A stretch of 12,985 nucleotides of DNA from a virus (taxonomy: Duplodnaviria; Heunggongvirae; Uroviricota; Caudoviricetes), in IMG/VR virus record IMGVR_UViG_2537561857_000027, one strand, 5' to 3'. The translations under genes and the position numbers were made by a program. Shown piece after piece: positions 1 through 12,985 of the stretch (positions within the stretch are counted from its first letter, which is position 1; each line of letters begins with the position of its first letter). The notes under the pieces were generated by a model. It had not been told where the DNA came from. It saw nothing but the letters and a program-made list of their open reading frames with translations, and did no database searches.

Positions 1-393
1 TTATGCCGTCACTGAATCGCGCTCAACATACCGATCCATCTCCAGCCGAACATCCAGCATCATCAGCATTCCTTCAATAACACCTTCAGCTTTTTGCAGC
101 CGCTTTCCGATAGTCCCATCAGAGCATTCATGTTTTTGCGCCAGTGACATAAACGTCATCCCCCGCACGTAGTAATCAACCAGCAACTCATGCAGATCGC
201 GATTGTTCCGGTAAAGGCGGGCTATGCACCCGCATATCACCATCGCATCATCGTCACAGCACTGTGGGCGTGATGTTATCTTTGCCGGAATAATCCCCTT
301 AAATCCTGCGGCAACGGATGACCAGGTCACATTCTCGCGATTATTTGCCGCCCACGCTCCCCTGCGTTCCAGAACCTGCTGAATATCACGCAT
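1..393 (-). CDS. Phage antitermination protein Q-like (QuuD-like), about 130 aa
   Basis: ORF-track frame 1..399 with stop at 1-3. The track's first codon is TTG; the first ATG is at 393-391, preceded by GAGG 9 nt upstream. The product [18 protein letters not shown]...CCDDDAM...[18 protein letters not shown]...[15 protein letters not shown] matches, from memory, the DLP12 QuuD / Q antiterminator family. Identification is by recall, not search. Confidence 0.6.
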
Positions 394-461
394 CAACAAT
401 CGCCTCGTAATAGCTGTGGTTACATACCCGTAATTCGGAGATGCACTGGATGAAAGTTAAA

Positions 462-600
462 CTACGAAAATTTCGTAGTTCTGACCCTCTTAAAGATGGT
501 TTGTTATCAGCCCTCAGAAGTGAGGGATGTAAAAATCAGGGCTGGCTGGCTGGCCCGGTCTGGATGGTTTACATACCCCGATATCGGGGATGTACAAATC
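462..600. other. Cluster of three GC-rich hairpins upstream of the Q-like gene: CTACGAAAATTTCGTAG (462-478), CCCTCAgaagTGAGGG (511-526), CCCCGATATCGGGG (576-589); the last two are each followed by ATGTA(A/C)AAATC
   Basis: Inverted repeats read directly from the sequence. The third is embedded in a longer imperfect palindrome ACATACCCCGATATCGGGGATGTA. None is followed by a T-run on the plus strand. Function unknown. Confidence 0.4.
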
Positions 601-779
601 ATGGTTTTACGACTGGTGAATTTGAACAACTCAAATAATCGAGTAAATGAGCAATAAACATCAATGGGTTAGAGTAATACCACGCAGCAGTGTTTCTCAA
701 CGCCCACCACTGACGGAAGTTGAATAAACTGAGCAGGCCAAAGCTCAAAAATGAGCTTTGGAACAATATCAACAAGTTA

Positions 780-975
780 CCGCCGTAACCGCTCCGGTTT
801 CCCCCAATGGGGGATTTCGAAAGAATCAACGGCTTAGGCCTTAATCATCTGCGTAATCATAATGATTATTCAGCCAGCGCAATTTTGCGCTTTGCTTTAA
901 TCTCAATGAGTTACCACGCCGACTTCCTCAAATTGAGGATTGTGGAAGAATCAACGGGTTAAGCCTAAATCAAAG
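780..975. repeat. Two degenerate tandem units about 125 bp apart, each a short GC hairpin (CCCCCAATGGGGG 800-812; CCTCAAATTGAGG 925-937) followed by the box GAAGAATCAACGGNTTARGCCTNAATCA (818-846; 945-972)
   Basis: Direct comparison of the two units. Both boxes contain a perfect match to the IHF core consensus WATCAANNNNTTR (AATCAACGGCTTA 823-835; AATCAACGGGTTA 949-961). No convincing ORF on either strand. Confidence 0.45.
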
Positions 976-1146
976 TTTTCGTGTGTATGTATTCGAAGGC
1001 TGATTTTCATGAAAATACCTTTAGAAGGGGTTTTGAAATTCCTCATTTGTGGCTCTGGCTTATGCCACTGATACGGAGCCGCGTTCTGTCGCTGCTCCTG
1101 CCGTCTCCTGACCACCATATGTTCCACCGTGTACAGCGTGCTCAGT

Positions 1147-1170
1147 AAAAACCACAGATTCGTGGTTTTT
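1147..1170. terminator. Candidate bidirectional intrinsic terminator (AAAA-ACCAC-agattc-GTGGT-TTTTT)
   Basis: 5-bp stem with 6-nt loop, flanked by an A-run upstream and a T-run downstream, so it is a hairpin plus U-tract on either strand. It lies about 70 bp downstream of the stop of the minus-strand 57-aa gene. The stem is short, so this is weak. Confidence 0.35.
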
Positions 1171-1239
1171 CTCCGGCTCTTTTTGCGACTCGTTTAAAAC
1201 TGGTCACAAGGTTACTTAAAGTTACTCAGTTCGACACCA

Positions 1240-1413
1240 TCACGGCACACCAGCCACAACACGCGCATAATTTTCAGTGGTCACGCTGTCCGGCTGCGTG
1301 GACTCCTGTTTGCGCTGGCGTTCTCTCTGCTCTTCAATCATGAGGATTAACTCGCGCTCCTCCTGTTCTTCAATAATCCCGTGAATTACCTCTGTTGGTG
1401 AACGGTCGGTCAT
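1240..1413 (-). CDS. Hypothetical small acidic protein, 57 aa (MTDRSPTEVIHGIIEEQEERELILMIEEQRERQRKQESTQPDSVTTENYARVVAGVP)
   Basis: Hand translation; below the 60-aa cut-off of the ORF track. ATG at 1413-1411 is preceded by a G-rich SD-like stretch (GGGGG, about 4 nt spacer); stop at 1240-1242. Its first 30 bp are duplicated at 4390-4419. Flanked on both sides by GGTTACTT(A/T)AAGT(T/A)ACT sites (1210-1227 and 1465-1483). Confidence 0.4.
   Translation of the reverse strand: MTDRSPTEVIHGIIEEQEERELILMIEEQRERQRKQESTQPDSVTTENYARVVAGVP
1382..1411. repeat. 30-bp perfect direct repeat, copy 1 (TGAATTACCTCTGTTGGTGAACGGTCGGTC); partner at 4390-4419
   Basis: Exact 30/30 identity read from the sequence; flanking bases differ on both sides. 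Copy 1 covers codons 2-10 of the 57-aa gene. Confidence 0.9.
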
Positions 1414-2045: not shown

Positions 2046-2069
2046 AACCGGGTTTATCCCGGCTTTTTT
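2046..2069 (+). terminator. Candidate plus-strand intrinsic terminator (CCGGG-ttta-CCCGG, then c + TTTTTT)
   Basis: 5-bp GC stem followed by a T6 run on the plus strand only. Its T-run overlaps the stop codon of the convergent minus-strand restriction gene. It implies plus-strand transcription in 1414-2040. Confidence 0.4.
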
Positions 2070-3144
2070 AATGTTTGATGCATTTTTCCATGAAAGAATC
2101 TAAGAATTGATCGGTTATTCCTTGAGGCTTTCGGCGCTCACAAAGAGAATACAATTCTTCTACGGCAGAGTAAGGAAAAAATTTTGTGTCTAGCTCACGA
2201 AATTGTGGTCTATTTGCAAACTCAATTACTTTTTCTCTATATTCATCTGGAGCTACGATTGTCCATCGTATATCTTGCAGACGGGGAGCATAATCACAGA
2301 AGTTCTTCATACGTGCTAAACCCCTTATTATTCCGGTACTATGCTCGATCTCCATCACGGCAGGCATCAATTTACCATTTCTAAACCAGATGCAATCTAT
2401 CAATCTTGCGCCAGCAATGGCTTCGCTGTAGGAACTTAGGACTTTTTCATTAGACAGACTGTCAATGACACCATCCATTTGAGCGATTGCTTTACCATTG
2501 TATTTTAATCCTCGGTCATTAGCTGCAACCCATGTTCTGTATCCCAGATGATGACCGATTTTTACTAATGCTATCTGGATTTGTGCATGTCTTCTTGATT
2601 CTTCAATAGACATGCCTTCAATTGGACGGATTGTTTCTGAATCAACACTTTGGTATACAACTTCTGTGTTCATCTCTGATATTACAATATTAGTTTTGTA
2701 TTCAGAAAGCTTGCCGTTTTCATGTGGTAAATTCGGTAAGTATATAAGATGCTTGTGGCCTTTTTTAATCGTCTGTTTCGTATTAATAACCTCTAAGCGG
2801 TCGAGTTTACACCAATAAAATTGAGGTGTATGAGCAAGCAAACTTTCAATAACTGAACGAGAGTTATAGCTTGCACCGAATACTCTATCTAAATTGATAG
2901 GCGCATCCTCTTGAATTGCGTTAGCCAAACGCCATAGCATTTGGCTAGATATGCTATCAACTTTGGCATCTCTGAGCGTTTCACCTTTGGTTGGATTGAA
3001 ACGTTTAAAGCGTATTGGGCCTTCTGGTAACTTAATCGAGTCGATAACAATCTTCCCGGCATTACTTTCATTCACATAATCAAACTGCCTGTTTTTGGGT
3101 AGATTTGCTATCGCATTCACAAGATTCATTGCTGTTAAATTCAT
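2068..3144 (-). CDS. Putative Type II restriction endonuclease partner of the adjacent methyltransferase (358 aa); nuclease family not recognisable
   Basis: Long ORF directly downstream of, and overlapping by 65 nt, the C5-methyltransferase gene on the same strand. ATG at 3144 has GGGA 6 nt upstream. The C-terminal region has a possible PD-(D/E)xK-like arrangement (...ARLIDCIWF...PAVMEIEHS...), which is a weak call. The restriction function is inferred from operon context. Confidence 0.5.
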   Translation of the reverse strand: MNLTAMNLVNAIANLPKNRQFDYVNESNAGKIVIDSIKLPEGPIRFKRFNPTKGETLRDAKVDSISSQMLWRLANAIQEDAPINLDRVFGASYNSRSVIESLLAHTPQFYWCKLDRLEVINTKQTIKKGHKHLIYLPNLPHENGKLSEYKTNIVISEMNTEVVYQSVDSETIRPIEGMSIEESRRHAQIQIALVKIGHHLGYRTWVAANDRGLKYNGKAIAQMDGVIDSLSNEKVLSSYSEAIAGARLIDCIWFRNGKLMPAVMEIEHSTGIIRGLARMKNFCDYAPRLQDIRWTIVAPDEYREKVIEFANRPQFRELDTKFFPYSAVEELYSLCERRKPQGITDQFLDSFMEKCIKH

Positions 3145-4219
3145 CTTTTATCCCTAAATGCTCTAATATGGATTTTGCTATGCCTAAAGCCGCAAGGTAA
3201 GGAACACCATTGCCAACAGTTTTAAACATATTTGAAAGAGTCATGTAAGATGGCAATTCGAATTCTTTCGGTAAAGACTGAATGGCAAGTGCTTCTGCAA
3301 CTGTTATTCTACGTGGCTTATATGGATGCAAATGTACTTCATTATTACCGTAAGCAGCTGTTGGAGAATATCTCCAGCGATGAAGACGCTTGTAAGATTT
3401 TTTGCTATCGTCCCCTTCAGCTACAGCTTTAAAGCGAACTAACCCAGCCCTAGCAGTAAACACATGTTTTGCGTTCACATGTTCAGAAACTTTGTTTTTC
3501 CTAAACCAGTAGTCAACAGTTAACTCTTCAGGAAGTGACTCAGGCATTGCCAGTGTTGAGTTCTCAACAAATTCATTCGTAGTTGGCCAATTATGTTCAA
3601 AAGCACTACTATCTGGGTATAATCTTCCACTCCAGTTAAAGATCTTGGTTAGACTTTTATTTTGGAAACCCAACAGAATAATGCGTTCACGGTCTTGCGG
3701 GACTCCGTATTCAATCGAATTTATTAACCTTTCATGAAGGATGTAACCAACGTCCATTAACTGTTTTTTGAGATGCTCAAAAAACTCACGGTGTTTGAGC
3801 GTGCGATAAAGACCTTTGACGTTCTCGAACAAAAAGAAGTCAGGCTTCATCTCAACAATTATATTGATGTAACTTTGAGACAGCTTACCGTTCTCTCCAT
3901 CGCGACCTTTGTTCTTACCTGCAACGGAGAAATCAGGGCACGGTGGGCCACCGATGAAGCCAATTAGTCTTTTTTCTTTCTTGAGAGCTTTAATATTATC
4001 TTTCAACTTATTGTGATCAACTTCCTCGATGCTCTCTTCTGCATATCCAAAACGTGGGATAGGTTTGTTCATCACCGCTCGTGAGTGCTTGTAAGCATCC
4101 ATAAATGGTGGGTGAAATTCATTCACAAAAACCACCTCGTAGCCTGAGTTTTCGAAGCCAAGATCTAGAAAACCTGAGCCGGAAAAGAAAGAGAAGATGG
4201 CGGGTTTAAGTGTGGACAT
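3080..4219 (-). CDS. DNA (cytosine-5)-methyltransferase, Type II R-M modification subunit (379 aa)
   Basis: Canonical m5C-MTase motifs in the correct order: I FSGSGF (FxGxG), IV GGPPCPDFS (catalytic Pro-Cys), VI ENVKGL, VIII QDRERIILLGF, IX RRITVAEALAIQSLP, X GNGVPY. A variable region of about 130 aa lies between VIII and IX. Start ATG at 4219. Confidence 0.9.
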   Translation of the reverse strand: MSTLKPAIFSFFSGSGFLDLGFENSGYEVVFVNEFHPPFMDAYKHSRAVMNKPIPRFGYAEESIEEVDHNKLKDNIKALKKEKRLIGFIGGPPCPDFSVAGKNKGRDGENGKLSQSYINIIVEMKPDFFLFENVKGLYRTLKHREFFEHLKKQLMDVGYILHERLINSIEYGVPQDRERIILLGFQNKSLTKIFNWSGRLYPDSSAFEHNWPTTNEFVENSTLAMPESLPEELTVDYWFRKNKVSEHVNAKHVFTARAGLVRFKAVAEGDDSKKSYKRLHRWRYSPTAAYGNNEVHLHPYKPRRITVAEALAIQSLPKEFELPSYMTLSNMFKTVGNGVPYLAALGIAKSILEHLGIKDEFNSNESCECDSKSTQKQAV

Positions 4220-4443: not shown

Positions 4444-4893
4444 TCAGAACGGAATATCGTCAGAGAACGGGTCATCACCTCCCGCTGGTGGCTGATTTCC
4501 CTGCTGTCCGGTCTGTCGTTTTGCTCTTTCCAGTGCTTCAGTCGCCTTCCCCTGTTGCCCCCGCTTCCCGCCAGGGCGCACCGAACGGGCACTGATTACG
4601 CTGTCAGCGATAACCTGCCAGCCCTGCCGTGTTTCCCCGTTCTGTCCGGTCCACTGGCTGATCTGCATGTTACCCGCCACGCTGATAAGGTCGCCTTTTT
4701 CATGTCTCGCCAGCGCGTCGGCCTGCTTACCAAATGCCAGGACTGATAGCCATAACGTCGCCTGTCCGTCCTGTGCCTGACTGCATGGCAGTGATACCGC
4801 CATACGCGCCAGCGTCATCGGTGTGCCCTTGCTGGTCTGTTTTACCTGCGGGTCGTCCACCAGCCGCCCGTAAGCTGCAATCTGTGCTGTCAT
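4444..4893 (-). CDS. ssb: Single-stranded DNA-binding protein (SSB), 149 aa
   Basis: Gly/Gln/Pro-rich linker and the hallmark acidic C-terminal tail ...GGDDPFSDDIPF (E. coli SSB ends DDDIPF). AAGGAG lies 8 nt upstream of the ATG. Start overlaps the stop of the upstream gene (ATGA). Confidence 0.85.
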   Translation of the reverse strand: MTAQIAAYGRLVDDPQVKQTSKGTPMTLARMAVSLPCSQAQDGQATLWLSVLAFGKQADALARHEKGDLISVAGNMQISQWTGQNGETRQGWQVIADSVISARSVRPGGKRGQQGKATEALERAKRQTGQQGNQPPAGGDDPFSDDIPF

Positions 4894-5306: not shown

Positions 5307-5367
5307 GAATCGTCTCCTTCCAGGCATCACATCATTCACACGCTTTATATATATAGGAAAAACGTGT

Positions 5368-5683
5368 CGCCTCAGTCGCCTCAGTTGCCTCAGTTGCCTC
5401 AAACGTCTTAACGTATTGATTTGATTAATAATCACAAAAAAATTGAGGCGACATCATGTCGATTTGAGGCAACAATAGGGGGTATTTGAGGCAACATCAC
5501 GTTGGTTCCGTTCAGACAAACAAAACCTGTCAGCCGTGTTGCCTCAAAATGGGCAGTTGTTGCCTCAAAATGGGTAATTGTTGCCTCAAAATGAGCAATT
5601 GTTGCCTCAGTAAAAACAGAAATAAAACATATAAATCAATCACATATATATATTTATTACTGTTTGAGGCAACTGAGGCAACA
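5368..5683. repeat. Iteron-type replication origin: at least 13 copies of the 9-mer GTTGCCTCA / TGAGGCAAC in both orientations, plus an AT-rich stretch (5611-5662)
   Basis: Four tandem 9-mers at 5368-5403; three inverted copies at 5444-5496; four copies at exact 21-bp spacing (5539, 5560, 5581, 5602); two inverted copies at 5666-5683. The array lies immediately downstream of the replication protein gene. Confidence 0.8.
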
Positions 5684-5707: not shown

Positions 5708-7846
5708 TTAATCGCTTCCCTCCTCATCGTGATTAGCGAACAACATCCCGTAGGCCCATAATTGCGCTCCATTAAGGTTCTTAAGGCGTGGGGTCTTGAT
5801 TTTCCATCCTCTCCCGCTCTCTGGTCGTTTCAGCATTCCAGCTTCGTGGAGTATTTTTGCAACGGTATCCTTGTTGAAGCCTTCCGCTACTTTCGATTTA
5901 AACGGCTCCGATAATACGTAAAACAACAATGGTTCATCGTAACGGCTTCCCGAATCCCTGTAGCCGTACAGCTCAGAAATCGGCAGGCTGGCTGGGTCAT
6001 AATCAACGGGCGCAAAACGGCTCATGCCGTAGGCAGCAAGAAACGCCTCTGCCTGCTCAATGATCTGTTTGTGTTCCTTGTTGCCCGTGCCAAATTCTTT
6101 TACCCAGGCATTAAATACATACTGAATTGCATCGCGGCATTCCTGCACGGACCAGCCAGTTACATGACCGGAAAGCACAAGCGCGGCCTCCAGTATGGAG
6201 AAACGTTCACCCACGCGGTGGACCTGCTCACCGTAATTGTCTGGAATGATATTTCGCCAGCGTGCACGGCTCTCTCTAACCGCGTCCTTAGCTTCCTGCT
6301 GGTTCTCCGCAAGCCATTTAATCCACTCACGCCCCGCTGCGCCGTGGTTTTCTTGCCATGCCGCCTTCAATGCGTCAGCGTGATCCTTTCCGTTGCTGTA
6401 TTCGTGTAACTGCGTGGCTTTTTGAATCGGGATATTGAGCAGGCGCACAAGTTGCCCGACCTTAACTTTTATCCCCGACGTTTTGAGGTATGTTTCGATA
6501 TCCACCTCTCCGGTGCTGATAGCAACGGTCCGCCAGTTTTTCAGCTCTCTGTTGCCGCCGTCCTTTGCCCCCTGTAATTTTCCGAATCCATTGAACAAAG
6601 TGTATGAGGATACGTACACGTCACGGGGGCTTCCTGCCTGCCCTATCTCGTCCAGTGGAAGGAGTCCGTGATTGTGTGCTTCTGCTTCGTTAGCTATCCC
6701 CAGCGCCGTTCCGTACCAGGTTAATCGCAGCGCCTCAGGATCGCCCCACAAGCTCGACGCGATGCTCTGCGTTGTGGTCTTGCCTGCTGTGGATTGCTCG
6801 AAAAAATGCACGCCAAAACCATCAGCGCCTGTCAGCCCGACTAATGGCGCGGATAATGACGTCGCTATACCCAGCATCATGAACGGATTGCCACCAGCCA
6901 GCCGCGCCACGCTGTCGCGCCAGCTTTCCGCCGTTCCTGCCACGGAATAACCGTTAATCGCGGCACTTTTTCCGGTAAACAAAACGGGCTTGTCAGATTC
7001 GCCGATAACCGTACCGTCCGGCATGATGTACGCGCCAAAATGCCAGCCAGCCTTCGGGCTTAAGTGCCATTCCTCATGCTGTCCGCCTAACTGCATCCAG
7101 TCAGCCAGGGGGATCCTGTGTTTTCCGTTTGTCGTGACTTTAAGCCCGTTGGCTTTCAGTAATCGCCAGCCGTCAGTGTCGCCTATTCCGCAGCAAGGCA
7201 CAGCCATAGTGACAAGCCGATTTGTTGTCGAATCTGTCCAGCGCATCACGCGGTAATGCTCGTTACCAATGACACCTGAACCGAGTAATTCAACGGAAGA
7301 ACACAGCCATTCGAACGGACGGATAATTTCGCCAGATTGCTTATCAACCTTTGGCGTCACCCAGTAAACGCCATCAGGACGGCATTCAACGCGGGGTTTT
7401 AATTCGTCATCATAATTTCCGGTGAAATTTGTCTTTGCCGGAAGATTGATCACCAGGCAGTTGCCGCGTTCCGCATCATCCTTCAGTCCAGCCATGCGCG
7501 GTGTCCAGTCCTCCGGCTGCTGGTCAACAAAGCCGCTGTAGCAGCGTGCCTCCTTTACACCCGCCACCGCAAGCAGTGTTGCTATCTGTAAAAGTGCTGT
7601 CTCTGATATTTCACCAGCACGATAAACGCGCACGTAATTGCGCCCTTTATCGATGATTTTCGTGTCTTCCAGGCTCGCCAGTTGTTTCGGTCCAAGAATA
7701 ACGGGCGGTGTATCATCTGCTGCAATATGCTTTCCGGCCCATTCGCTCCACTCTTTCGCATGTGCCCAGGCATCACTACCCGCAAAGATAATGACTTCGG
7801 TCATTTTGTCTTTCGGCTGTTTTTTTAAATTCGGTGCGCTTTTCAT
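5708..7846 (-). CDS. Satellite replication initiator, primase/helicase-like (pri-rep), 712 aa
   Basis: Large ORF adjacent to the iteron array. N-terminal region (MTEVIIFAGSDAWAHAKEW...) resembles Toprim/primase-type domains; the central region has a P-loop-like GKT segment (EQSTAGKTTTQS). The domain call is from pattern memory only. Start ATG overlaps the stop of the upstream gene (ATGA). Confidence 0.75.
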   Translation of the reverse strand: MKSAPNLKKQPKDKMTEVIIFAGSDAWAHAKEWSEWAGKHIAADDTPPVILGPKQLASLEDTKIIDKGRNYVRVYRAGEISETALLQIATLLAVAGVKEARCYSGFVDQQPEDWTPRMAGLKDDAERGNCLVINLPAKTNFTGNYDDELKPRVECRPDGVYWVTPKVDKQSGEIIRPFEWLCSSVELLGSGVIGNEHYRVMRWTDSTTNRLVTMAVPCCGIGDTDGWRLLKANGLKVTTNGKHRIPLADWMQLGGQHEEWHLSPKAGWHFGAYIMPDGTVIGESDKPVLFTGKSAAINGYSVAGTAESWRDSVARLAGGNPFMMLGIATSLSAPLVGLTGADGFGVHFFEQSTAGKTTTQSIASSLWGDPEALRLTWYGTALGIANEAEAHNHGLLPLDEIGQAGSPRDVYVSSYTLFNGFGKLQGAKDGGNRELKNWRTVAISTGEVDIETYLKTSGIKVKVGQLVRLLNIPIQKATQLHEYSNGKDHADALKAAWQENHGAAGREWIKWLAENQQEAKDAVRESRARWRNIIPDNYGEQVHRVGERFSILEAALVLSGHVTGWSVQECRDAIQYVFNAWVKEFGTGNKEHKQIIEQAEAFLAAYGMSRFAPVDYDPASLPISELYGYRDSGSRYDEPLLFYVLSEPFKSKVAEGFNKDTVAKILHEAGMLKRPESGRGWKIKTPRLKNLNGAQLWAYGMLFANHDEEGSD

Positions 7847-8390: not shown

Positions 8391-8575
8391 TACTGCACCC
8401 CCTTAATTTCATGAACGGCGTGGATAATTACGCCGGATAAACCGGCTTTAGCTGATTTGTTAATTACTGTGCTGATTGCAGCCTGGACGTTTTCGGCCTT
8501 CACGTTCTGCGTGATGCCAACGGTATAGCCGCGTGCATTAACGGCACGGGAAAAAACACGGAAGGTTTTAAGCAT
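8390..8575 (-). CDS. Hypothetical protein, 61 aa
   Basis: Strong SD: GGAGG with 6-nt spacer before the ATG at 8575. Confidence 0.55.
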   Translation of the reverse strand: MLKTFRVFSRAVNARGYTVGITQNVKAENVQAAISTVINKSAKAGLSGVIIHAVHEIKGVQ

Positions 8576-8738
8576 GAGTCACCTCCTGACGGATACGGGC
8601 GACAAAAATCAGATGTGCGTGCGGCAGCTGCGCGCGTGCTTCGCGCTCAGTGGCAGCGGTAACGGTGAATATTGCAATGCTACCTGTCAGGCACTGCATA
8701 AAGCGCCAGACAAAGTAAGGGCGTGCGGATACAGCCAT
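8568..8738 (-). CDS. Hypothetical small protein, 56 aa, with a hydrophobic core (LTGSIAIFTVTAAT); proposed real 3' part of the 504-aa track ORF
   Basis: Internal ATG at 8738 is preceded by GAGGAG with an 8-nt spacer, and codon usage improves from here to the stop. Its end overlaps the start of the next gene by 8 nt. Start assignment is by inference. Confidence 0.35.
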   Translation of the reverse strand: MAVSARPYFVWRFMQCLTGSIAIFTVTAATEREARAQLPHAHLIFVARIRQEVTHA

Positions 8739-8903
8739 GTGAAAGGCTCCTCTGACTTTGGGATTATACCCACCGCCGGAGGTGGTAAGCTCGCTGGCGG
8801 TGGACTGTACAGGGTTACCACAACTGGCGTTAGAGGAAACCAGCCCGACCGAAGTCGGCCCCATACAGCCCACCATTGTTGAGGTGTGCGTGTGCGCCGA
8901 TAC

Positions 8904-8924
8904 AAAAAAAGACGCTGGCGCGTC
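8904..8924 (-). terminator. Minus-strand intrinsic terminator (GACGC-tggc-GCGTC followed by T7 on the minus transcript)
   Basis: Plus-strand A7 at 8904-8910 precedes the hairpin at 8911-8924; an outer CGATACA/TGTATCG stem (8897-8903 with 8926-8932) encloses it. Confidence 0.5.
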
Positions 8925-9207
8925 GTGTATCGCCTCTAACTCCAGCGGGGTGGTAATCCCGATCCCCGTTTTATAAGGGATAGCCTCAGTATATGCCGCT
9001 TTTTTGCTTAAGTGGTCGGATGTGTTGCGAGAGAAGTTTGTGCGAAAAATACCTGCGTTTTCTTTGAAAGCACATAATAACATCACGTTATTTATGTTTA
9101 TGCAGTGTGTCGCAAAGCGACCTGAATCATCACGCAAATTACAACCATAAAAAATACCTGCGCTGTGATATGAGGTACTACAGCGCACCGCTTTACGGGT
9201 ACAGACA

Positions 9208-9387
9208 ATGACAAATGAAGAACTACAGGAAATCGCATTATCCATACTTGAGCGACAGCGCGAAAAAGTACGCCTGGAACGCGAGTCTTTGCTTAATCCC
9301 TCTCCTCTCACCAGACCAAAACGATTTGCGCTTGAGGCATTTCTGGACAAATACCCACGGCGATTAATCTCGCCTAAAAACCGATAG
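9208..9387 (+). CDS. Small basic/helical protein A, 59 aa (MTNEELQEIALSILERQREKVRLERESLLNPSPLTRPKRFALEAFLDKYPRRLISPKNR)
   Basis: Hand translation; below the track cut-off. Shares a C-terminal motif K(R/K)FALE(A/E)FL(D/R)KYPRRL...KNR with ORF B, and a similar 45-nt upstream region. Composition is protein-like. The coding strand is not proven (see findings). Confidence 0.4.
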   Translation: MTNEELQEIALSILERQREKVRLERESLLNPSPLTRPKRFALEAFLDKYPRRLISPKNR

Positions 9388-9483
9388 CGATCCGCTTTTG
9401 CTTCTCTGACTCCATAAAACGAATAACAACCATCAGCGCCGTGGTGTGAGGTGCTGCGTCGCTCCGCTGTACAGGAAATAAGT

Positions 9484-9762
9484 ATGGATTTACCACCAGA
9501 AGATGAGAAATTTTTACGACAACTACAACACCAACTACTCATGGATGCCATTGTCGAGCAGCAAACAGGGAGCAGCCCCATTGATTCATCGCTGAATAAA
9601 AAGGCCGCTTCCCGTTTTATTGAAAACAGGATAAGACGAGGAAAAACATGTGACGACGAGTCAAAGGCATCGCATACAAGAGATAAAAAATTTGCACTTG
9701 AAGAGTTTCTCAGGAAATACCCACGGCGGCTAAAAGCAACCAAAAATCGCCCGCCAGGCTGA
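9484..9762 (+). CDS. Small protein B, 92 aa, paralogue of protein A
   Basis: The track ORF 9451..9762 begins at GTG; the ATG at 9484 has AGGAA 6 nt upstream. C-terminal motif shared with protein A. Confidence 0.45.
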   Translation: MDLPPEDEKFLRQLQHQLLMDAIVEQQTGSSPIDSSLNKKAASRFIENRIRRGKTCDDESKASHTRDKKFALEEFLRKYPRRLKATKNRPPG

Positions 9763-9765
9763 TAG

Positions 9766-10076
9766 CATTGTCCACCAGCCTCAGATATGGCATTGTGGAT
9801 AATGCGCTTGATTTCCTTTATCTCCACTGGCGACCCTTTCGTGGTCGCCTTTGTTTTGCCTGCCATTCCTGCATCATGCGGATATTCGCGCCGTACAGGG
9901 CCACCAGCGCGATAATTTGATAAAGCCTCCTTCTGATAATGCTTAACGTGTTTCATGCGCTCAGCGGCGAAATGGCTCACGATATGGCGCATGTAATCAG
10001 CATGGTTGATGCTCACCTGTGCGAACTTATCCGCAGTATCGATGTACAGGGCGGCAGCGTTGCGGATGTCAGGCAT
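9766..10076 (-). CDS. Hypothetical protein (MPDIRNAAALYIDTADKFAQVSINHADYMRHIVSHFAAERMKHVKHYQKEAL...); start well supported, 3' end unresolved
   Basis: ATG at 10076 with GGAG about 9 nt upstream; it overlaps the stop of the upstream 51-aa gene by 8 nt (ATGCCTGA). The first 50 or so codons use E. coli-preferred codons (ATC, CTG, CGC, AAC, TTC). The frame has no stop until 8568. The lower coordinate given here is arbitrary. Confidence 0.3.
9829..9858 (+). terminator. Plus-strand intrinsic terminator (GGCGACC-ctttcgt-GGTCGCC followed by TTTGTTTTG)
   Basis: Perfect 7-bp GC-rich stem followed by a T-rich tract, about 70 bp downstream of ORF B. Confidence 0.6.
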
Positions 10077-10224
10077 GTTCACGTTCTCCCAGGCGACGGA
10101 CCAGCCAGCGTTGGGCTAATTCGGTGAGACGTTCTTTACGTTCTGGCGTTGGCATATCCATATCCAGTAGCGCACAGTTACGGCTTTCCAGATACGCGAG
10201 CAACGCCAGTTGATCAGCGGTCAT
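10069..10224 (-). CDS. Hypothetical small protein, 51 aa (MTADQLALLAYLESRNCALLDMDMPTPERKERLTELAQRWLVRRLGEREHA)
   Basis: Internal ATG at 10224 overlaps the stop of the Rha-family gene (ATGA); the track's longer 81-aa version would overlap that gene. Confidence 0.45.
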   Translation of the reverse strand: MTADQLALLAYLESRNCALLDMDMPTPERKERLTELAQRWLVRRLGEREHA

Positions 10225-10859
10225 ATGGTCACGAACTTTTTTTGATGGGATGCCGTTTTTTTGGCCCATACAGGCGGGTGCATCCCTAATACAAGGCGCG
10301 CAATGAAAGTACATTCGTTGTTATAAGCATGACCGTGTTGAGTATCTCCAGTGCGCTCAATGTATCCCTTCATGGCATCCCCCATAGAGCGCATCTCAGC
10401 TTTGGCCTCACATCTCTCTGCTATCCAGTTAGCCATGCGGTTAAACTGCGCAATGTATGCCTCTTTGAATGCAGCCGCTTTTTTTCCGGTAAATCCCATT
10501 GTTAAAAACACGAAGCCGTCTTTGGTGACTTCGTAGGCTTTCAATACGCGCCCCTTATGCTCAAATTTTACCCGCCGAAAATTGCGGGTTAAAAATTCAG
10601 CAGAACAACACAGGTTTTCAATCCGGTTAACAACCTTATCGTGATCCTTTCTGAAAAATCGGGCGATAGCCTGTGAAGTGGTTACAGGCTCACCGCCAGA
10701 AGGAAACACTTCCGGCGCGGTGAGTGCATTTTTATTTATTCCGTCAGCAATAATCTCATTGCCGGAAATTACCGGAATAATTGCGGCGAAATACTGTTGG
10801 CTCAGTTCTTCGGGCTGAACGAAGCCCTGCCCCTGTACGAGCATATTCGGACGTTTCAT
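10221..10859 (-). CDS. Phage regulatory protein, Rha family (212 aa)
   Basis: Residues about 57-140 (TTSQAIARFFRKDHDKVVNRIENL...RVLKAYEVTKDGFVFLTMGFTGKKAAAFKEAYIAQFNRM) match the Rha-domain signature as I remember it. AGGAG lies 7 nt upstream of the ATG at 10859. Confidence 0.75.
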   Translation of the reverse strand: MKRPNMLVQGQGFVQPEELSQQYFAAIIPVISGNEIIADGINKNALTAPEVFPSGGEPVTTSQAIARFFRKDHDKVVNRIENLCCSAEFLTRNFRRVKFEHKGRVLKAYEVTKDGFVFLTMGFTGKKAAAFKEAYIAQFNRMANWIAERCEAKAEMRSMGDAMKGYIERTGDTQHGHAYNNECTFIARLVLGMHPPVWAKKTASHQKKFVTI

Positions 10860-10924: not shown

Positions 10925-11128
10925 TTACGCGGCGTTGTTGCGAGAAGCATCAATACGCTGGTTAATCCATTCGTCGACTTCACTTTCAATAAAAGCCACG
11001 GAGCGGGGACCAATTTTTACCGGTTTAGGGAAACGCCCCAGGCTGATCAGGCGATAAATCCATGCGCGACCATAACCAGTACGGCGCATAACTTCAGAAA
11101 GACGGATGAATGAATTGTTATTAGCCAT
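10925..11128 (-). CDS. alpA: AlpA-family transcriptional regulator / excisionase-like protein (67 aa)
   Basis: MANNNSFIRLSEVMRRTGYGRAWIYRLISLGRFPKPVKIGPRSVAFIESEVDEWI matches the AlpA/Vis-type helix-turn-helix signature. AAGGAG upstream. Position just downstream of the integrase is typical for P4/PICI satellites. Confidence 0.85.
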   Translation of the reverse strand: MANNNSFIRLSEVMRRTGYGRAWIYRLISLGRFPKPVKIGPRSVAFIESEVDEWINQRIDASRNNAA

Positions 11129-11206: not shown

Positions 11207-11239
11207 ACGACAAAAACCACAACATGAAAACATGTTGTG
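11207..11239 (-). terminator. Minus-strand intrinsic terminator (CCACAACATG-aaaa-CATGTTGTGG, then TTTTTGTCG on the minus transcript)
   Basis: Perfect 10-bp inverted repeat at 11216-11239 with the A-run on its plus-strand 5' side; about 530 nt downstream of the int stop and about 90 bp upstream of the alpA start. Confidence 0.6.
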
Positions 11240-11770
11240 GTATTGCATAAGATAAATTCAGATTGTTTGGTTGGTATGCTCCAGCAAGGTAGAGCTATTC
11301 CCGCTTTCGGCGGGGTCACACGATTAGGCGTGACGTCCAGTAGTTTTAAAGAGCGTTTTTTCAGTACATGGTGGGCGGACAAGAAAGCAATTGCGCTTTG
11401 TCAGCGCCGTAGATTCATATTTGAATCGTTGTATGTTTCCCGATAGCAAATCTATCGGTCACTGCGGGACGAACCATCCCGCCGCATCAATGTTAAAGAT
11501 CAACAGCACTTTGCCAGCGCTCCACCGCCTCATGGATGAATCATTACATGCTTTGTAATAGTGCATATATCACCATTCTTTCCTGCATCAGGAAAGCACT
11601 AAAGGCTGTTAAAGAGCATCCAGCTTTTCAGCTGCGTAGAAGACTCAATCTTCGTTGTTACAAAGAGCGCCCATACATGACGGATAACTGCGTGAAAAAC
11701 CCTCTGTAAGGATGTTAGCTGTAGCTTTCCGTGTACGTTAGTATACATCTGTATACTTGTCCAGTCGTTT

Positions 11771-12985
11771 TTATGCACATACACCAAACTTGCCGTGCAC
11801 CACGTTACCGCCCTGTTCCAGTGAGTCCATATAGTCGGCGTACCACTGGAGCATCTCCCGCCGTCCGTCCAGATATTGCGCGTGATTGTATGTGCCACGG
11901 ATCGAGTTTTTATCGACGTGCGCCAGCTGCGTTTCTATCCATGCGGAGTTATACCCCTGCTCGTGCAAAATCGTACTCATGGTGTGCCGGAACCCATGAC
12001 CAGTAACACGCCCTGCATAACCAATACGACGAATAAGCACGTTCATCGCCATTTCACTCATCGGTTTACTGTGCTGTATTCGACCAGGGAAAATAAACGG
12101 ATACTGCCCCGTCATGTGTTTCAGTTGTTCCAGAATAGCAATCGCCTGTTCTGAAAGCGGCACGCAATGAGGACGGCGCATTTTCATTCGTTCTTTCGGC
12201 ACTTCCCACAGACGATTATCAAAATCAATCTCCTGCCACTCTGCCTGCCGTAATTCACCAGGGCGGAGTCCTGTAAGAATCAACAATCGCATACCCAGCT
12301 TGACGATCTGGCTTCCGGTGTACGTATTAAAAACGCGGAAAAACTCCGGTAGCTCATCAACTTTCAGATACGCGTAATGCTCTTTCTTGTGTGGTGCAAA
12401 TGCGCTTGCCAGATCAGGAGCGGGGTTATATTCAGCGCGTCCGGTAATTATTGCGTACCGGAACACTTCGCCACATCGCTGGCGAACCTTACGCAATTTT
12501 TCAGTTGCGCCACGGTCATTAAGACGGGATAGAACCGCGAGCAATTCCATCGGCTTAATCTCTGCGATGGGCCTACCTCCAATGTACGGAAAAACGTCTT
12601 TTTCAAACGTCTCTATCATTTCCTCTGCATATGAGGGAGACCATCGGTCCAGGCGTTTTTCATACCACTCACGGGCGATCGCCTCAAAGGTGTTACCGCA
12701 TTTGTTCGCCTGTTCTCGCTTTTGGGCCTTTCTGACCTCACTCGGATTAACTCCACCAGCGATAAGCCTTTTGGCCTCATCCCTTGCCGTCCTGGCATCA
12801 GAAAGGGACACCTCAGGATAAACACCCAGCGACAACATTTTGGGCTTGCCTGCAAACCTGTATCGCAATCGCCAGCCCTTCGAACCGTTCGGCTCAATGA
12901 GTAACGAAAGCCCGTTGCCGTCATTGAGTGTATAGGCTTTCTCTTTTGGCTTCGCGCGGCGGATAGCAAGGTCTGAAAGCAACAT
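11771..12985 (-). CDS. int: P4-type tyrosine integrase (404 aa), complete
   Basis: N-terminus MLLSDLAIRRAKPKEKAYTLNDGNGLSLLIEPNGSKGWRLRYRFAGKPKMLSLGVYPEVSLSDAR is the conserved P4-integrase N-terminal domain; C-terminus has the catalytic region (HGFRHT ... RGTYNHAQY). ATG is at 12985-12983, the window edge, so the attachment site lies beyond the window. Confidence 0.95.
   Translation of the reverse strand: MLLSDLAIRRAKPKEKAYTLNDGNGLSLLIEPNGSKGWRLRYRFAGKPKMLSLGVYPEVSLSDARTARDEAKRLIAGGVNPSEVRKAQKREQANKCGNTFEAIAREWYEKRLDRWSPSYAEEMIETFEKDVFPYIGGRPIAEIKPMELLAVLSRLNDRGATEKLRKVRQRCGEVFRYAIITGRAEYNPAPDLASAFAPHKKEHYAYLKVDELPEFFRVFNTYTGSQIVKLGMRLLILTGLRPGELRQAEWQEIDFDNRLWEVPKERMKMRRPHCVPLSEQAIAILEQLKHMTGQYPFIFPGRIQHSKPMSEMAMNVLIRRIGYAGRVTGHGFRHTMSTILHEQGYNSAWIETQLAHVDKNSIRGTYNHAQYLDGRREMLQWYADYMDSLEQGGNVVHGKFGVCA

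Follow-up and report, generated by a model that had tools for sequence, protein, structure and literature searches.

The block between positions 400 and 1240 of the window (the whole stretch of DNA analysed here, 12,985 nucleotides in length) is a scrambled tandem array made of at least seven copies of one type of module. A module associates a perfect short palindrome, commonly of the form NNNCA-loop-TGNNN, with a spacer of about 10 nt followed by a ATCAAnnnnTTA box; in the block all modules have the same orientation, antisense to the genes of the island that harbours them, and scraps of a kilA-N gene and of a broken small gene are interspersed among them. To judge from sequence comparison, the modules descend from a single piece, of about 50 bp, of the phage regulator genes of the rha/roi family, where that piece encodes the strand that comes after the recognition helix. 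Its role is probably to bind proteins, as a control region or as a decoy, rather than to serve as an island end, an origin or a structured RNA. The best explanation of the whole that we can offer, a non-coding array of rha/roi-derived modules that would work as a DNA-binding region for IHF and Roi-type proteins, is one that we hold with slightly more doubt than confidence.

The whole window is a phage satellite of the PICI type and the block is internal to this island, whose distal spacer, without coding function, it forms. Its gene set comprises int, alpA, rha, ash/icd with a C4 RNA, a DUF927 primase gene with iterons, cargo and Q. Set against the features that define PICIs (PMC6092414), the window combines int, alpA and pri-rep with iterons 3' of rep, unidirectional genes and zero structural genes; iterons placed just 3' of the primase gene are the layout of Gram-negative PICIs (PMC6092414, PMC11773190). 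As an element induced and transferred by a helper phage the island is a putative PICI, known here from its sequence. The block is bordered on one side by the gene of a Q-family antiterminator and on the other by a broken small gene of the phrog_1561 family, which in the window is split into three displaced pieces. The real rha gene of the island (10221-10859) is found 9 kb from the block. The features of the block and of its borders are the following.

1-399, minus strand: gene of a Q-family antiterminator, the left border (Pfam PF06530, E 1.6e-49; antiterminator Q family in RefSeq)
400-532, no strand assigned: Q-proximal leader, which holds the hairpins 460-480 and 511-526
460-480, no strand assigned: palindrome T0, AACTACGAAaatTTCGTAGTT, with a 9-bp stem, found too in arrays without Q
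511-537, plus strand: module T1, CCCTCAgaagTGAGGG followed by ATGTAAAAATC, a module also present in 26 IMG/VR stretches
569-607, plus strand: module T5, CCCCGatatCGGGG (576-589) followed by ATGTACAAATC and the box-like ATCATGGTTTTA
738-779, plus strand: module T4, CCAAAGCTCAaaaaTGAGCTTTGG with the perfect IHF core TATCAACAAGTTA (767-779)
776-797, minus strand: displaced 3' end of the phrog_1561 gene (…KPERLRR, stop), recognized by tblastn with the intact 105-aa homologue of island L031
792-845, plus strand: tandem unit 1, nearest to roi allele c, TCCCCCaatGGGGGA (800-814) with the perfect IHF core AATCAACGGCTTA (824-836)
869-931, plus strand: module T2, a fragment of Rha ('RNFALC…NEL'), AGCGCAatttTGCGCT (876-891) with the box CTCAATGAGTTA (902-913)
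919-1000, plus strand: tandem unit 2, a fragment of roi allele a, TCCTCAaatTGAGGA (925-939) with the perfect IHF core AATCAACGGGTTA (949-961)
1053-1118, minus strand: displaced fragment of the phrog_1561 gene, aa 80-101
1099-1187, minus strand: fragment of a KilA-N gene with the palindrome AAAAACCACagattcGTGGTTTTT (1147-1170), 94% identical in nucleotides to HK620 hkbK (tblastn, E 6e-11) and a pseudogene in RefSeq
1240-1413, minus strand: 57-aa ORF, a truncation of the phrog_1561 gene to its N-terminal half, the right border

Two ideas about the phrog_1561 small gene were set aside. Its identification as Rpp finds no sequence match in the PDB, and no Pfam or NCBIfam family was found for the gene. 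An N-like arginine-rich motif at the C-terminus of its product, acting with boxB-like hairpins, was suggested by reading the protein sequence by eye; GNRA-like loops are in the minority, and the copy of the gene in the window is truncated. Separately, the relatives of Q in other species belong to ordinary prophages, where the DNA immediately upstream of Q is occupied by coding genes and has no IHF cores; in one Citrobacter prophage, a roi-like gene is located directly upstream of Q.

A first-pass annotation made from the letters of the window had described three GC hairpins between 462 and 600. Three hairpins are present there, and two of them run into a shared motif as described (CCCTCAgaagTGAGGG at 511-526 into ATGTAAAAATC, CCCCGatatCGGGG at 576-589 into ATGTACAAATC); the first, at 460-480, is AT-rich, not GC-rich. 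Perfect hairpins, understood as stems of at least 5 bp with loops of 3-6 nt, number 12 in the block as compared with 2.85 +/- 1.64 in shuffles, and their density is the highest in the window, with 9 of its 27 stems of at least 6 bp falling inside the block. T5 arose by duplication of the Q-proximal segment 420-446, from which it has diverged (repeat family D4), and the leader that contains this segment is conserved: some 130 E. coli genomes have it upstream of a Q-family gene, at 80-88% identity. The two tandem units of 125 bp that had been noticed are real: 785-847 and 910-972 are 76% identical with a spacing of 125, and the repeat extends past them, 742-781 and 876-915 being 70% identical with a spacing of 134. 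The perfect IHF consensus that had been claimed is there as well, WATCAANNNNTTR starting at 767, 824 and 949, always on the plus strand, and the other 12 kb of the window contain two more. Some 0.03 cores would be expected by chance in 841 bp, and the three observed copies are related through duplication. By consensus match these cores are candidate IHF sites, a reading that is credible because the unit made of a palindrome and an IHF box also sits within roi genes.

That the block has no convincing gene was also well seen. Its longest ORFs do not exceed 76 aa, and the RefSeq annotation, which comes from an identical copy, lists one 81-bp scrap of a KilA-N pseudogene. The 65-aa ORF at 441-638 was rejected as a gene for want of conservation, the alignment of related islands showing that in L005 and L031 a stop cuts it down to 11 codons. 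The 18-codon repeat that stays in frame in island L175 was likewise discarded as coding sequence, with a stop just upstream and a start that is not conserved; in the window, the 125-bp spacing interrupts its frame. An intact Rha ORF with its Phage_pRha domain (PF09669) was not found in the block, where the match is restricted to 21 residues at 869-931, and no intact roi gene lies upstream of Q and co-oriented with it: there are only equivalents of aa 41-68, with stops around them and facing opposite to Q.

The relationship with phage genes is clearest for unit 2, which is 95% identical in nucleotides to roi of JLK-2012, Lahn2 and Stx phages and corresponds to Roi aa 42-68 with 93% identity (tblastn, E ~1e-13 to 1e-15; 4e-15 for allele a). 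Unit 1 matches aa 41-57 of Roi allele c with 65% identity (tblastn, 792-842, E 8.6e-5), and each of the two tandem units thus represents a roi allele of its own. T2 matches Rha domains with 57% identity (tblastn, E 7e-6) and shares a 19-mer with diverse rha genes. The first-pass annotation had overlooked this derivation of the units from phage genes (roi, rha, kilA-N), as well as the small gene that the array breaks. Within the genes themselves, a perfect IHF core is found at the equivalent spot of five roi alleles out of five, where the encoded residues vary (PQIE, PALQ, PPMV), and the palindrome is kept in all five, perfect in four and with one mismatch in allele c; the array copy CCCCCAATGGGGG is perfect where this allele reads GGTGG. 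In the same way, of 21 nucleotide-distinct RNFALC rha genes collected by means of a codon-degenerate pattern, 18 have CGCAATTTTGCGCTTTGC to the letter, while the wobble positions on either side of it are variable; in the rha gene of the island itself, the equivalent codons form another palindrome. It thus looks as if rha/roi genes carry, within their coding sequence, a small element at the nucleotide level, a palindrome with or without an IHF core. Among the five roi alleles the pairing of palindrome class with recognition helix is suggestive of binding by Roi, which is a prediction, and this pairing could be mere linkage within one mosaic block. Clerget and Boccard, in a 1996 paper cited in PMC3430580, are said to have found that HK022 Roi and IHF bind within roi, Roi next to an IHF site; this site may correspond to the roi stretch made of the palindrome and the IHF core. 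As to rha, PMC4936722, in a passage that cites Henthorn & Friedman 1995, states that Rha is harmful to phage growth without IHF and that IHF regulates rha.

Related arrays exist in other islands, and the block is more than plain spacer, as had been proposed: the unit made of a hairpin and an IHF box recurs, with a strict polarity, in 36 distinct related arrays. Twenty-three modules are present in eight islands. Over the 36 arrays, where all counts are inflated by shared ancestry, there are 12.0 perfect hairpins per kb as against 1.9 in shuffles, and the box follows the hairpin on the plus strand, at a distance of 5-16 nt (mode 10-11), for 96 hairpins out of 252, while the reverse orientation is never observed. 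With the same inflation, the 18.4 kb of arrays contain the perfect IHF consensus 64 times on the plus strand and twice on the minus strand, as against once in 83.5 kb of adjacent island DNA, an enrichment of about 290-fold over neighbouring DNA. The HSPs of Roi and Rha on the arrays are all on the plus strand (87 of 87), nearly always at Roi aa ~40-60 or Rha aa ~50-70, with a few Rha matches that extend further.

The number, order and content of the modules vary freely between islands. The array of L175 contains three consecutive 54-bp modules with the three roi palindrome classes, and those of L004 and L005 have an extra module flanked by an 18-bp direct repeat. Paralogous modules differ through compensatory changes in their arms: the outer pair of T1 is compensatory in L005 (TCCTCA/TGAGGA), and T4 differs from its L029 copy by three compensatory double changes (CCAGAGTGCA/TGCACTCTGG). 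In L031, an O157:H7 relative, the 105-aa small gene is intact and is separated from Q by just a 158-bp gap with three hairpins; as this gap stands there instead of the array, the array is dispensable for maintenance of the island. Furthermore, most arrays are in islands without Q, so that any Q-specific role cannot be general. Copies were found in 944 and 908 of 5426 E. coli genomes (~17%), with a median of one place per genome and a maximum of 5-6, and in the genomes surveyed these are always satellite islands or phage roi or kilA genes. Membership of a known dispersed repeat family, the finding that was to speak against the first-pass annotation, does not agree with such a low copy number as far as the REP/BIME type is concerned, REP-type elements having more than 100 copies per genome (PMC2817692).

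Several ways of understanding this array have to be balanced against one another. The first-pass annotation had proposed that the block might be the island boundary or a site of attachment, packaging or replication initiation. Such places typically have arrays of IHF sites and repeats, and in cos-type relatives the array does lie within a few hundred bp of cosN. The proposal is, in our view, very improbable. The block sits between island genes, with Q on its left, and the sole candidate att repeat found is ~680 bp beyond Q, outside the window; the comparison with the int-tRNA-Gly side that had been proposed for finding a shared attL core yielded this repeat as its best, a weak one of 22 nt that does not fall in 400-1240. 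An origin in the block competes with PICI-type iterons (5366-5401, 5537-5609 and 5665-5682) located ~4 kb from it and just 3' of the primase gene, the place where PICIs have their origin, an AT-rich stretch framed by two iteron sets and directly following pri-rep on its 3' side (PMC6092414). Packaging fares no better: the lambda cosN sequence GGGCGGCGACCT was not found with up to one mismatch in the full island L001, and with up to two mismatches the window has a single match, a 2-mismatch one at 12261, which is at chance level. In the cos-type relatives it is on the side of cosQ that the array is located, with the small gene between array and cosN, and hence it is not cosB.

The hairpins might also operate as RNA, either as IHF-assisted attenuators or insulators against antisense transcription entering the distal end, or as stabilizing or processing hairpins ahead of Q in the long operon mRNA of the island. 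The strict co-orientation of the modules is in line with this, as are the 2-4 T that follow most plus-strand hairpins, the terminator-like score of 876-891 and the seven sites that a terminator scan detects in 1-2100 where 2.1 are expected; the invariant CGCAATTTTGCGCTTTGC of rha genes reads as a hairpin with a U-rich tail, as would suit a toxic product whose level is limited in an IHF-dependent manner (PMC4936722). However, a simple terminator test is passed by two sites of the block (876-891 on the plus strand, 748-729 on the minus strand) and by none of the three roi-type modules of L175, and neither a sigma-70-like promoter in the block nor any promoter-like site facing into the array was found. 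The block folds far better than shuffles on both strands (z = -5.3 and -5.45), and stem mismatches have no G-U wobble bias on either. The covariance-model search that had been proposed for a structured RNA returns no Rfam family in the block at the gathering threshold; in a relaxed search the best match is manA, at 17.7 bits for a threshold of 55.2, again at chance level. Equal folding of the two strands, lack of wobble bias and lack of an Rfam match argue for a DNA element rather than an RNA element, and we see a role as RNA as quite unlikely.

A serious rival, if a somewhat unlikely one, is that the array is debris: an antisense rha-type pseudogene at the island end, duplicated internally and patched by co-resident lambdoid phages (roi, kilA-N), in which palindromes would persist or be perfected via hairpin-templated mutation and the IHF boxes would be inherited passengers. 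The three displaced pieces of the phrog_1561 gene fit this account, and the kilA-N scrap together with the 95%-identical roi scrap points to recent illegitimate or short-homology exchange. The variation of copy number and order by island, with the 18-bp direct repeat of L004 and L005, goes in the same direction, as do the absence of nearly all of the array from L031 and the longer Rha remnants (aa 20-80 or 50-120) retained by a few arrays. Yet random decay hardly explains why one ~50-bp piece of rha/roi alone is ever reiterated. Other points against debris are the strict polarity and the 10-11 nt between palindrome and box across 96 modules, the enrichment of the IHF consensus, the compensatory changes that keep palindromes while coding sense is lost, and the adjacent modules of L175 with their three roi palindrome classes. 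Palindromes that are perfect or compensated in DNA that no longer codes suggest a constraint on palindromy rather than on coding. The reading that we prefer, a DNA-binding array, has difficulties of its own: a single sequence-specific dimer is not easily reconciled with stems so diverse in sequence and with arms spaced by 1, 3 or 4 nt; perfect palindromes can stay perfect via template-switch mutation without selection; and variable modules next to a broken small gene are what is expected of a recombination scar.

If the array acts as DNA, as we infer, IHF would bend it at the boxes while winged-helix proteins of the Rha/Roi type, either those of a helper phage or the Rha of the island itself, would occupy the palindromes. 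A nucleoprotein block would thereby form immediately upstream of Q and would gate transcription at the end of the island or insulate it; alternatively, the array would titrate helper regulators once the island replicates. A more specific proposal, which we put forward as unlikely, is that PICIs carry multi-allelic arrays of the operator and IHF sites that helper lambdoid phages keep inside rha/roi, so that the amplified array would soak up or sense helper Roi/Rha of several classes. The outcome would be interference with the helper or gating of distal genes, here Q, and a continuing tracking of helpers would account for the modules that are nearly identical to present-day phage alleles. Sensing of helpers by Gram-negative PICIs and interference with them are only partly understood, and work so far has centred on proteins, AlpA and Rpp. 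A conserved non-coding array derived from the regulatory site of a helper gene would be a DNA-based contact point between satellite and helper, and the element embedded in rha/roi could be the reason why phages with these genes depend on IHF, as has long been known; even as debris, the array would bear witness to a hot spot of recombination at the distal island end. A full-text search of the literature for Roi, PICI and helper phage jointly returned no paper, and the PICI papers cited here do not describe such arrays.

Known systems resemble the array in part. The RIP/RIB (BIME-1) elements of E. coli, where REP palindromes flank an IHF site, are likewise clusters of extragenic palindromes with an IHF consensus; the array, however, has no REP sequence, its modules are co-oriented instead of alternating and it occupies about one locus per genome. 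Lambda cosB (R sites of the small terminase and the IHF site I1) and the cos of PICIs offer a second parallel, with repeated sites for winged-helix proteins interspersed with an IHF site, close to cos as the array is in some relatives; yet the island has no cosN and the cos-type relatives have their array on the wrong side of it. Gram-negative PICIs such as EcCICFT073, EcCIEDL933 and EcCIMP1 share with the window their characteristic genes and an iteron origin located directly 3' of pri-rep (PMC6092414, PMC11773190), whereas the Q-family gene is present in a subset of islands only. Genes of the rha family (PF09669), which is linked to IHF and whose products block phage growth in IHF-deficient hosts (PMC4936722), are recognizable in T2 through the piece it encodes and its near-invariant 18-mer, although what the array holds is limited to some 20 codons and includes neither an intact domain nor an ORF. 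A further counterpart is the reported intragenic Roi/IHF site of lambdoid phage roi genes: in every roi allele examined, as in the array modules, a palindrome precedes a perfect IHF core by ~10 nt; in the array, by contrast, this piece has been excised from its gene and repeated many times in several allelic forms, and it is non-coding, antisense and carried by a satellite instead of the nin region of a phage.

The 400-1240 block has no convincing open reading frame (the longest reaches at most 76 aa, and the sole RefSeq annotation is a KilA-N pseudogene scrap), as the first-pass annotation had it; that original observation is confirmed and extended here. The three hairpins it reported, two with ATGTAMAAATC tails, lie at 460-480, 511-537 and 576-600. 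Perfect hairpins number 12, against 2.85 +/- 1.64 in shuffled sequence, the highest density in the window, and folding of the block gives z ~ -5.4 on each strand. The tandem units proved real and longer than claimed, pairing 742-781 with 876-915 and 785-847 with 910-972, and their perfect IHF cores were recovered, with three in the block (767, 824 and 949), all on the same strand. Judged by gene set and origin layout, both as in Gram-negative phage-inducible chromosomal islands (PMC6092414, PMC11773190), the island that carries the block is a PICI. All its genes lie on the minus strand of the window:

11771-12985, minus strand, integrase
10925-11128, minus strand, AlpA
10221-10859, minus strand, Rha-family regulator
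8568-10082, minus strand, Ash/Icd-like gene
8793-8880, minus strand, C4 antisense RNA within the Ash/Icd-like gene (Rfam RF01695, 77.7 bits, E 3e-14, full-length)
5708-7846, minus strand, DUF927 primase
5366-5682, short iterons just 3' of the primase gene: GTCGCCTCA x4 (5366-5401), a 21-nt unit x3.5 (5537-5609) and TGAGGCAAC x2 (5665-5682)
4444-4893, minus strand, SSB
3080-4219, minus strand, cytosine methyltransferase
2068-3144, minus strand, 358-aa gene, no Pfam or PHROG match
1240-1413, minus strand, 57-aa ORF
400-1240, ORF-poor block
1-399, minus strand, Q-family antiterminator

An identical copy of the block is found in E. coli JNEC-KY203, where the island sits beside tRNA-Gly, adjoining the ETT2 locus; in that copy of the island IS421 has inserted and both int and rha are frameshifted, none of which applies to the window. 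The C4 RNA in the Ash/Icd-like frame points to a putative antisense immunity module of P1/P7/P4 style in this satellite. The methyltransferase and the overlapping 358-aa gene fill a slot (2068-4219, minus strand) that in related islands holds restriction endonuclease, PemK/MazF toxin or PerC genes instead, likely a cargo or defence hotspot. Between alpA and int, the region ranking second in the window for hairpin richness, there is a perfect palindrome with an 11-bp stem (ACCACAACATGaaaaCATGTTGTGGT, 11216-11241). Near-identical palindromes, GTTACTTAAAGTTAC and GTTACTTTAAGTAAC, stand on both sides of the 57-aa ORF (1211-1225, 1466-1480), and 12-nt repeats (TGCGCACTTTTT, ATCGATTTTATG) fill 1551-1690; together these may form an operator or promoter region. 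Q, a late-gene antiterminator, is the last gene in a subset of satellites (the window and the related islands L004, L005, L027, L029, L030, L031 and L178), yet it is absent from most relatives with the same array. Its candidate targets are a helper late promoter or short ORFs downstream of it.

When the gap is aligned with related islands, blocks come and go as whole units, L004 and L005 having an additional module between copies of an 18-bp direct repeat. Taking each ATCAR....TWA box with its left flank yielded 23 modules in eight islands, of a single design: palindrome, 8-12 nt, box. Pattern scans with three module sequences retrieved about 90 further IMG/VR loci. Most hold their modules downstream of a phrog_1561 homologue, no more than 400 bp away, on small PICI-like contigs and usually without Q. 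In counts over arrays of common ancestry, where events are not independent, 36 distinct arrays hold 12.0 perfect hairpins per kb versus 1.9 in shuffles, a plus-strand box 5-16 nt after the hairpin (mode 10-11) in 96 of 252 cases and the reverse in none, and spacing peaks of 48, 52 and 54 bp between neighbouring boxes; perfect IHF consensus occurs 64 times on the plus and twice on the minus strand of 31 arrays (18.4 kb), and a single time in the 83.5 kb of island DNA beside them; and all 87 Roi/Rha protein matches are on the plus strand, nearly all at Roi residues ~40-60 or Rha residues ~50-70. The modules are no dispersed repeat family: about 17% of E. coli genomes have them, at a median of one locus each. 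Such arrays were found described neither in the PICI literature examined nor by full-text search.

The pieces can be traced. In phage genomes, 919-1000 matches roi from Stx-type and JLK-2012 phages, within the 5' part of that gene (95% identity), and 1112-1187, minus strand, the HK620 KilA-N gene hkbK (94%). At the protein level, Roi residues 42-68 match 920-1000, this segment recurs in diverged form as a second copy, unit 1 (792-845), and 869-931 matches the Rha-family segment FAERNFALC..NEL (E 7e-6). The phrog_1561 gene is intact in the O157:H7 relative L031 (105 aa, 2653-2970), where it lies just 158 bp upstream of Q. The window has it in pieces: the first 56 residues are the 57-aa ORF, residues 80-101 are displaced to 1118-1053, and the last residues and stop are at 797-776. 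The block is thus a patchwork, grown within and after that gene's 3' part. The protein has an arginine-rich C-terminus and is truncated in the window and several relatives. An array of palindromes and IHF boxes in a PICI, derived from rha and roi, is well supported in anatomy and origin.

The first-pass view of the block as a cis-acting, IHF-related site stays plausible; its boundary, origin, packaging and structured-RNA versions found no support. The block sits inside the island, and just one att-like repeat was found: 22 nt at 91% identity in the full island L001 (12905-12926 and 27904-27925), shared by the int-tRNA-Gly side and a point ~680 bp beyond Q, which may be the att core. The iterons adjoin the primase gene, not the block; their arrangement agrees with the published PICI origin layout, and they are the probable ori. 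As for packaging, cosN is absent from the window and L001; of the IMG/VR loci fetched, 30 carry lambda cosN, ~120 bp from the phrog_1561 gene in those inspected (e.g. locus L118), and cos-type relatives have their array to the cosQ side of this small gene. On these grounds att, origin and packaging site were rejected.

Recombination debris would account for the broken phrog_1561 gene, the kilA-N scrap, the freely varying order and number of modules, and the fact that L031 manages without an array. By contrast, a palindrome that is imperfect in the gene is perfect in the arrays (CCCCCAATGGGGG in the arrays versus GGTGG); between paralogous modules, double changes preserve the pairing with unchanged flanks (CCAAAGCTCA/TGAGCTTTGG versus CCAGAGTGCA/TGCACTCTGG, with further variants GCGCA, GCTCA, GTGCA and ACGCA); and in the array L175 three successive 54-bp modules represent the three roi palindrome classes, all of which favours a putative constraint on palindromy. 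A function at the RNA level finds little support: stem mismatches show no wobble bias (G.T 6, A.C 7, other 20), folding is alike on both strands, a terminator test is passed by few modules, and a covariance-model check against Rfam gave nothing. We infer that IHF and Roi/Rha-type proteins would bind the array, which might gate Q or titrate helper regulators.

The same arrangement recurs inside phage genes. In 80 IMG/VR roi loci and HK022, the corresponding stretch has five allelic forms with differing residues (PQIE.., PALQ.., PPMV..), each with a palindrome (CCTCAAATTGAGG, CCTGCATTGCAGG, CCCCCAATGGTGG, CTGCATTGCAG) 10-12 nt ahead of a perfect IHF core; the palindrome of allele c, the sole imperfect one, is off by one base. 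Palindrome class goes with the putative recognition helix, a match for which linkage could account because the two are only ~40 nt apart. Among RNFALC-type rha genes, gathered by a codon-degenerate peptide search (IMG/VR loci L205-L260), 18 of 21 nucleotide-distinct genes share an identical 18 nt, CGCAATTTTGCGCTTTGC, while flanking wobble positions differ and the proteins are just 50-60% identical. The island's own rha has a different palindrome, ACCCGCaattttcgGCGGGT, at the corresponding codons. This part of rha and roi genes thus appears to hold a nucleotide-level element, one that looks undescribed in the case of rha. HK022 Roi reportedly binds inside its own gene, adjoining an IHF site. 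As for Rha, a passage citing Henthorn & Friedman 1995 has it stopping phage growth in IHF-deficient hosts, with rha itself regulated by IHF (PMC4936722).
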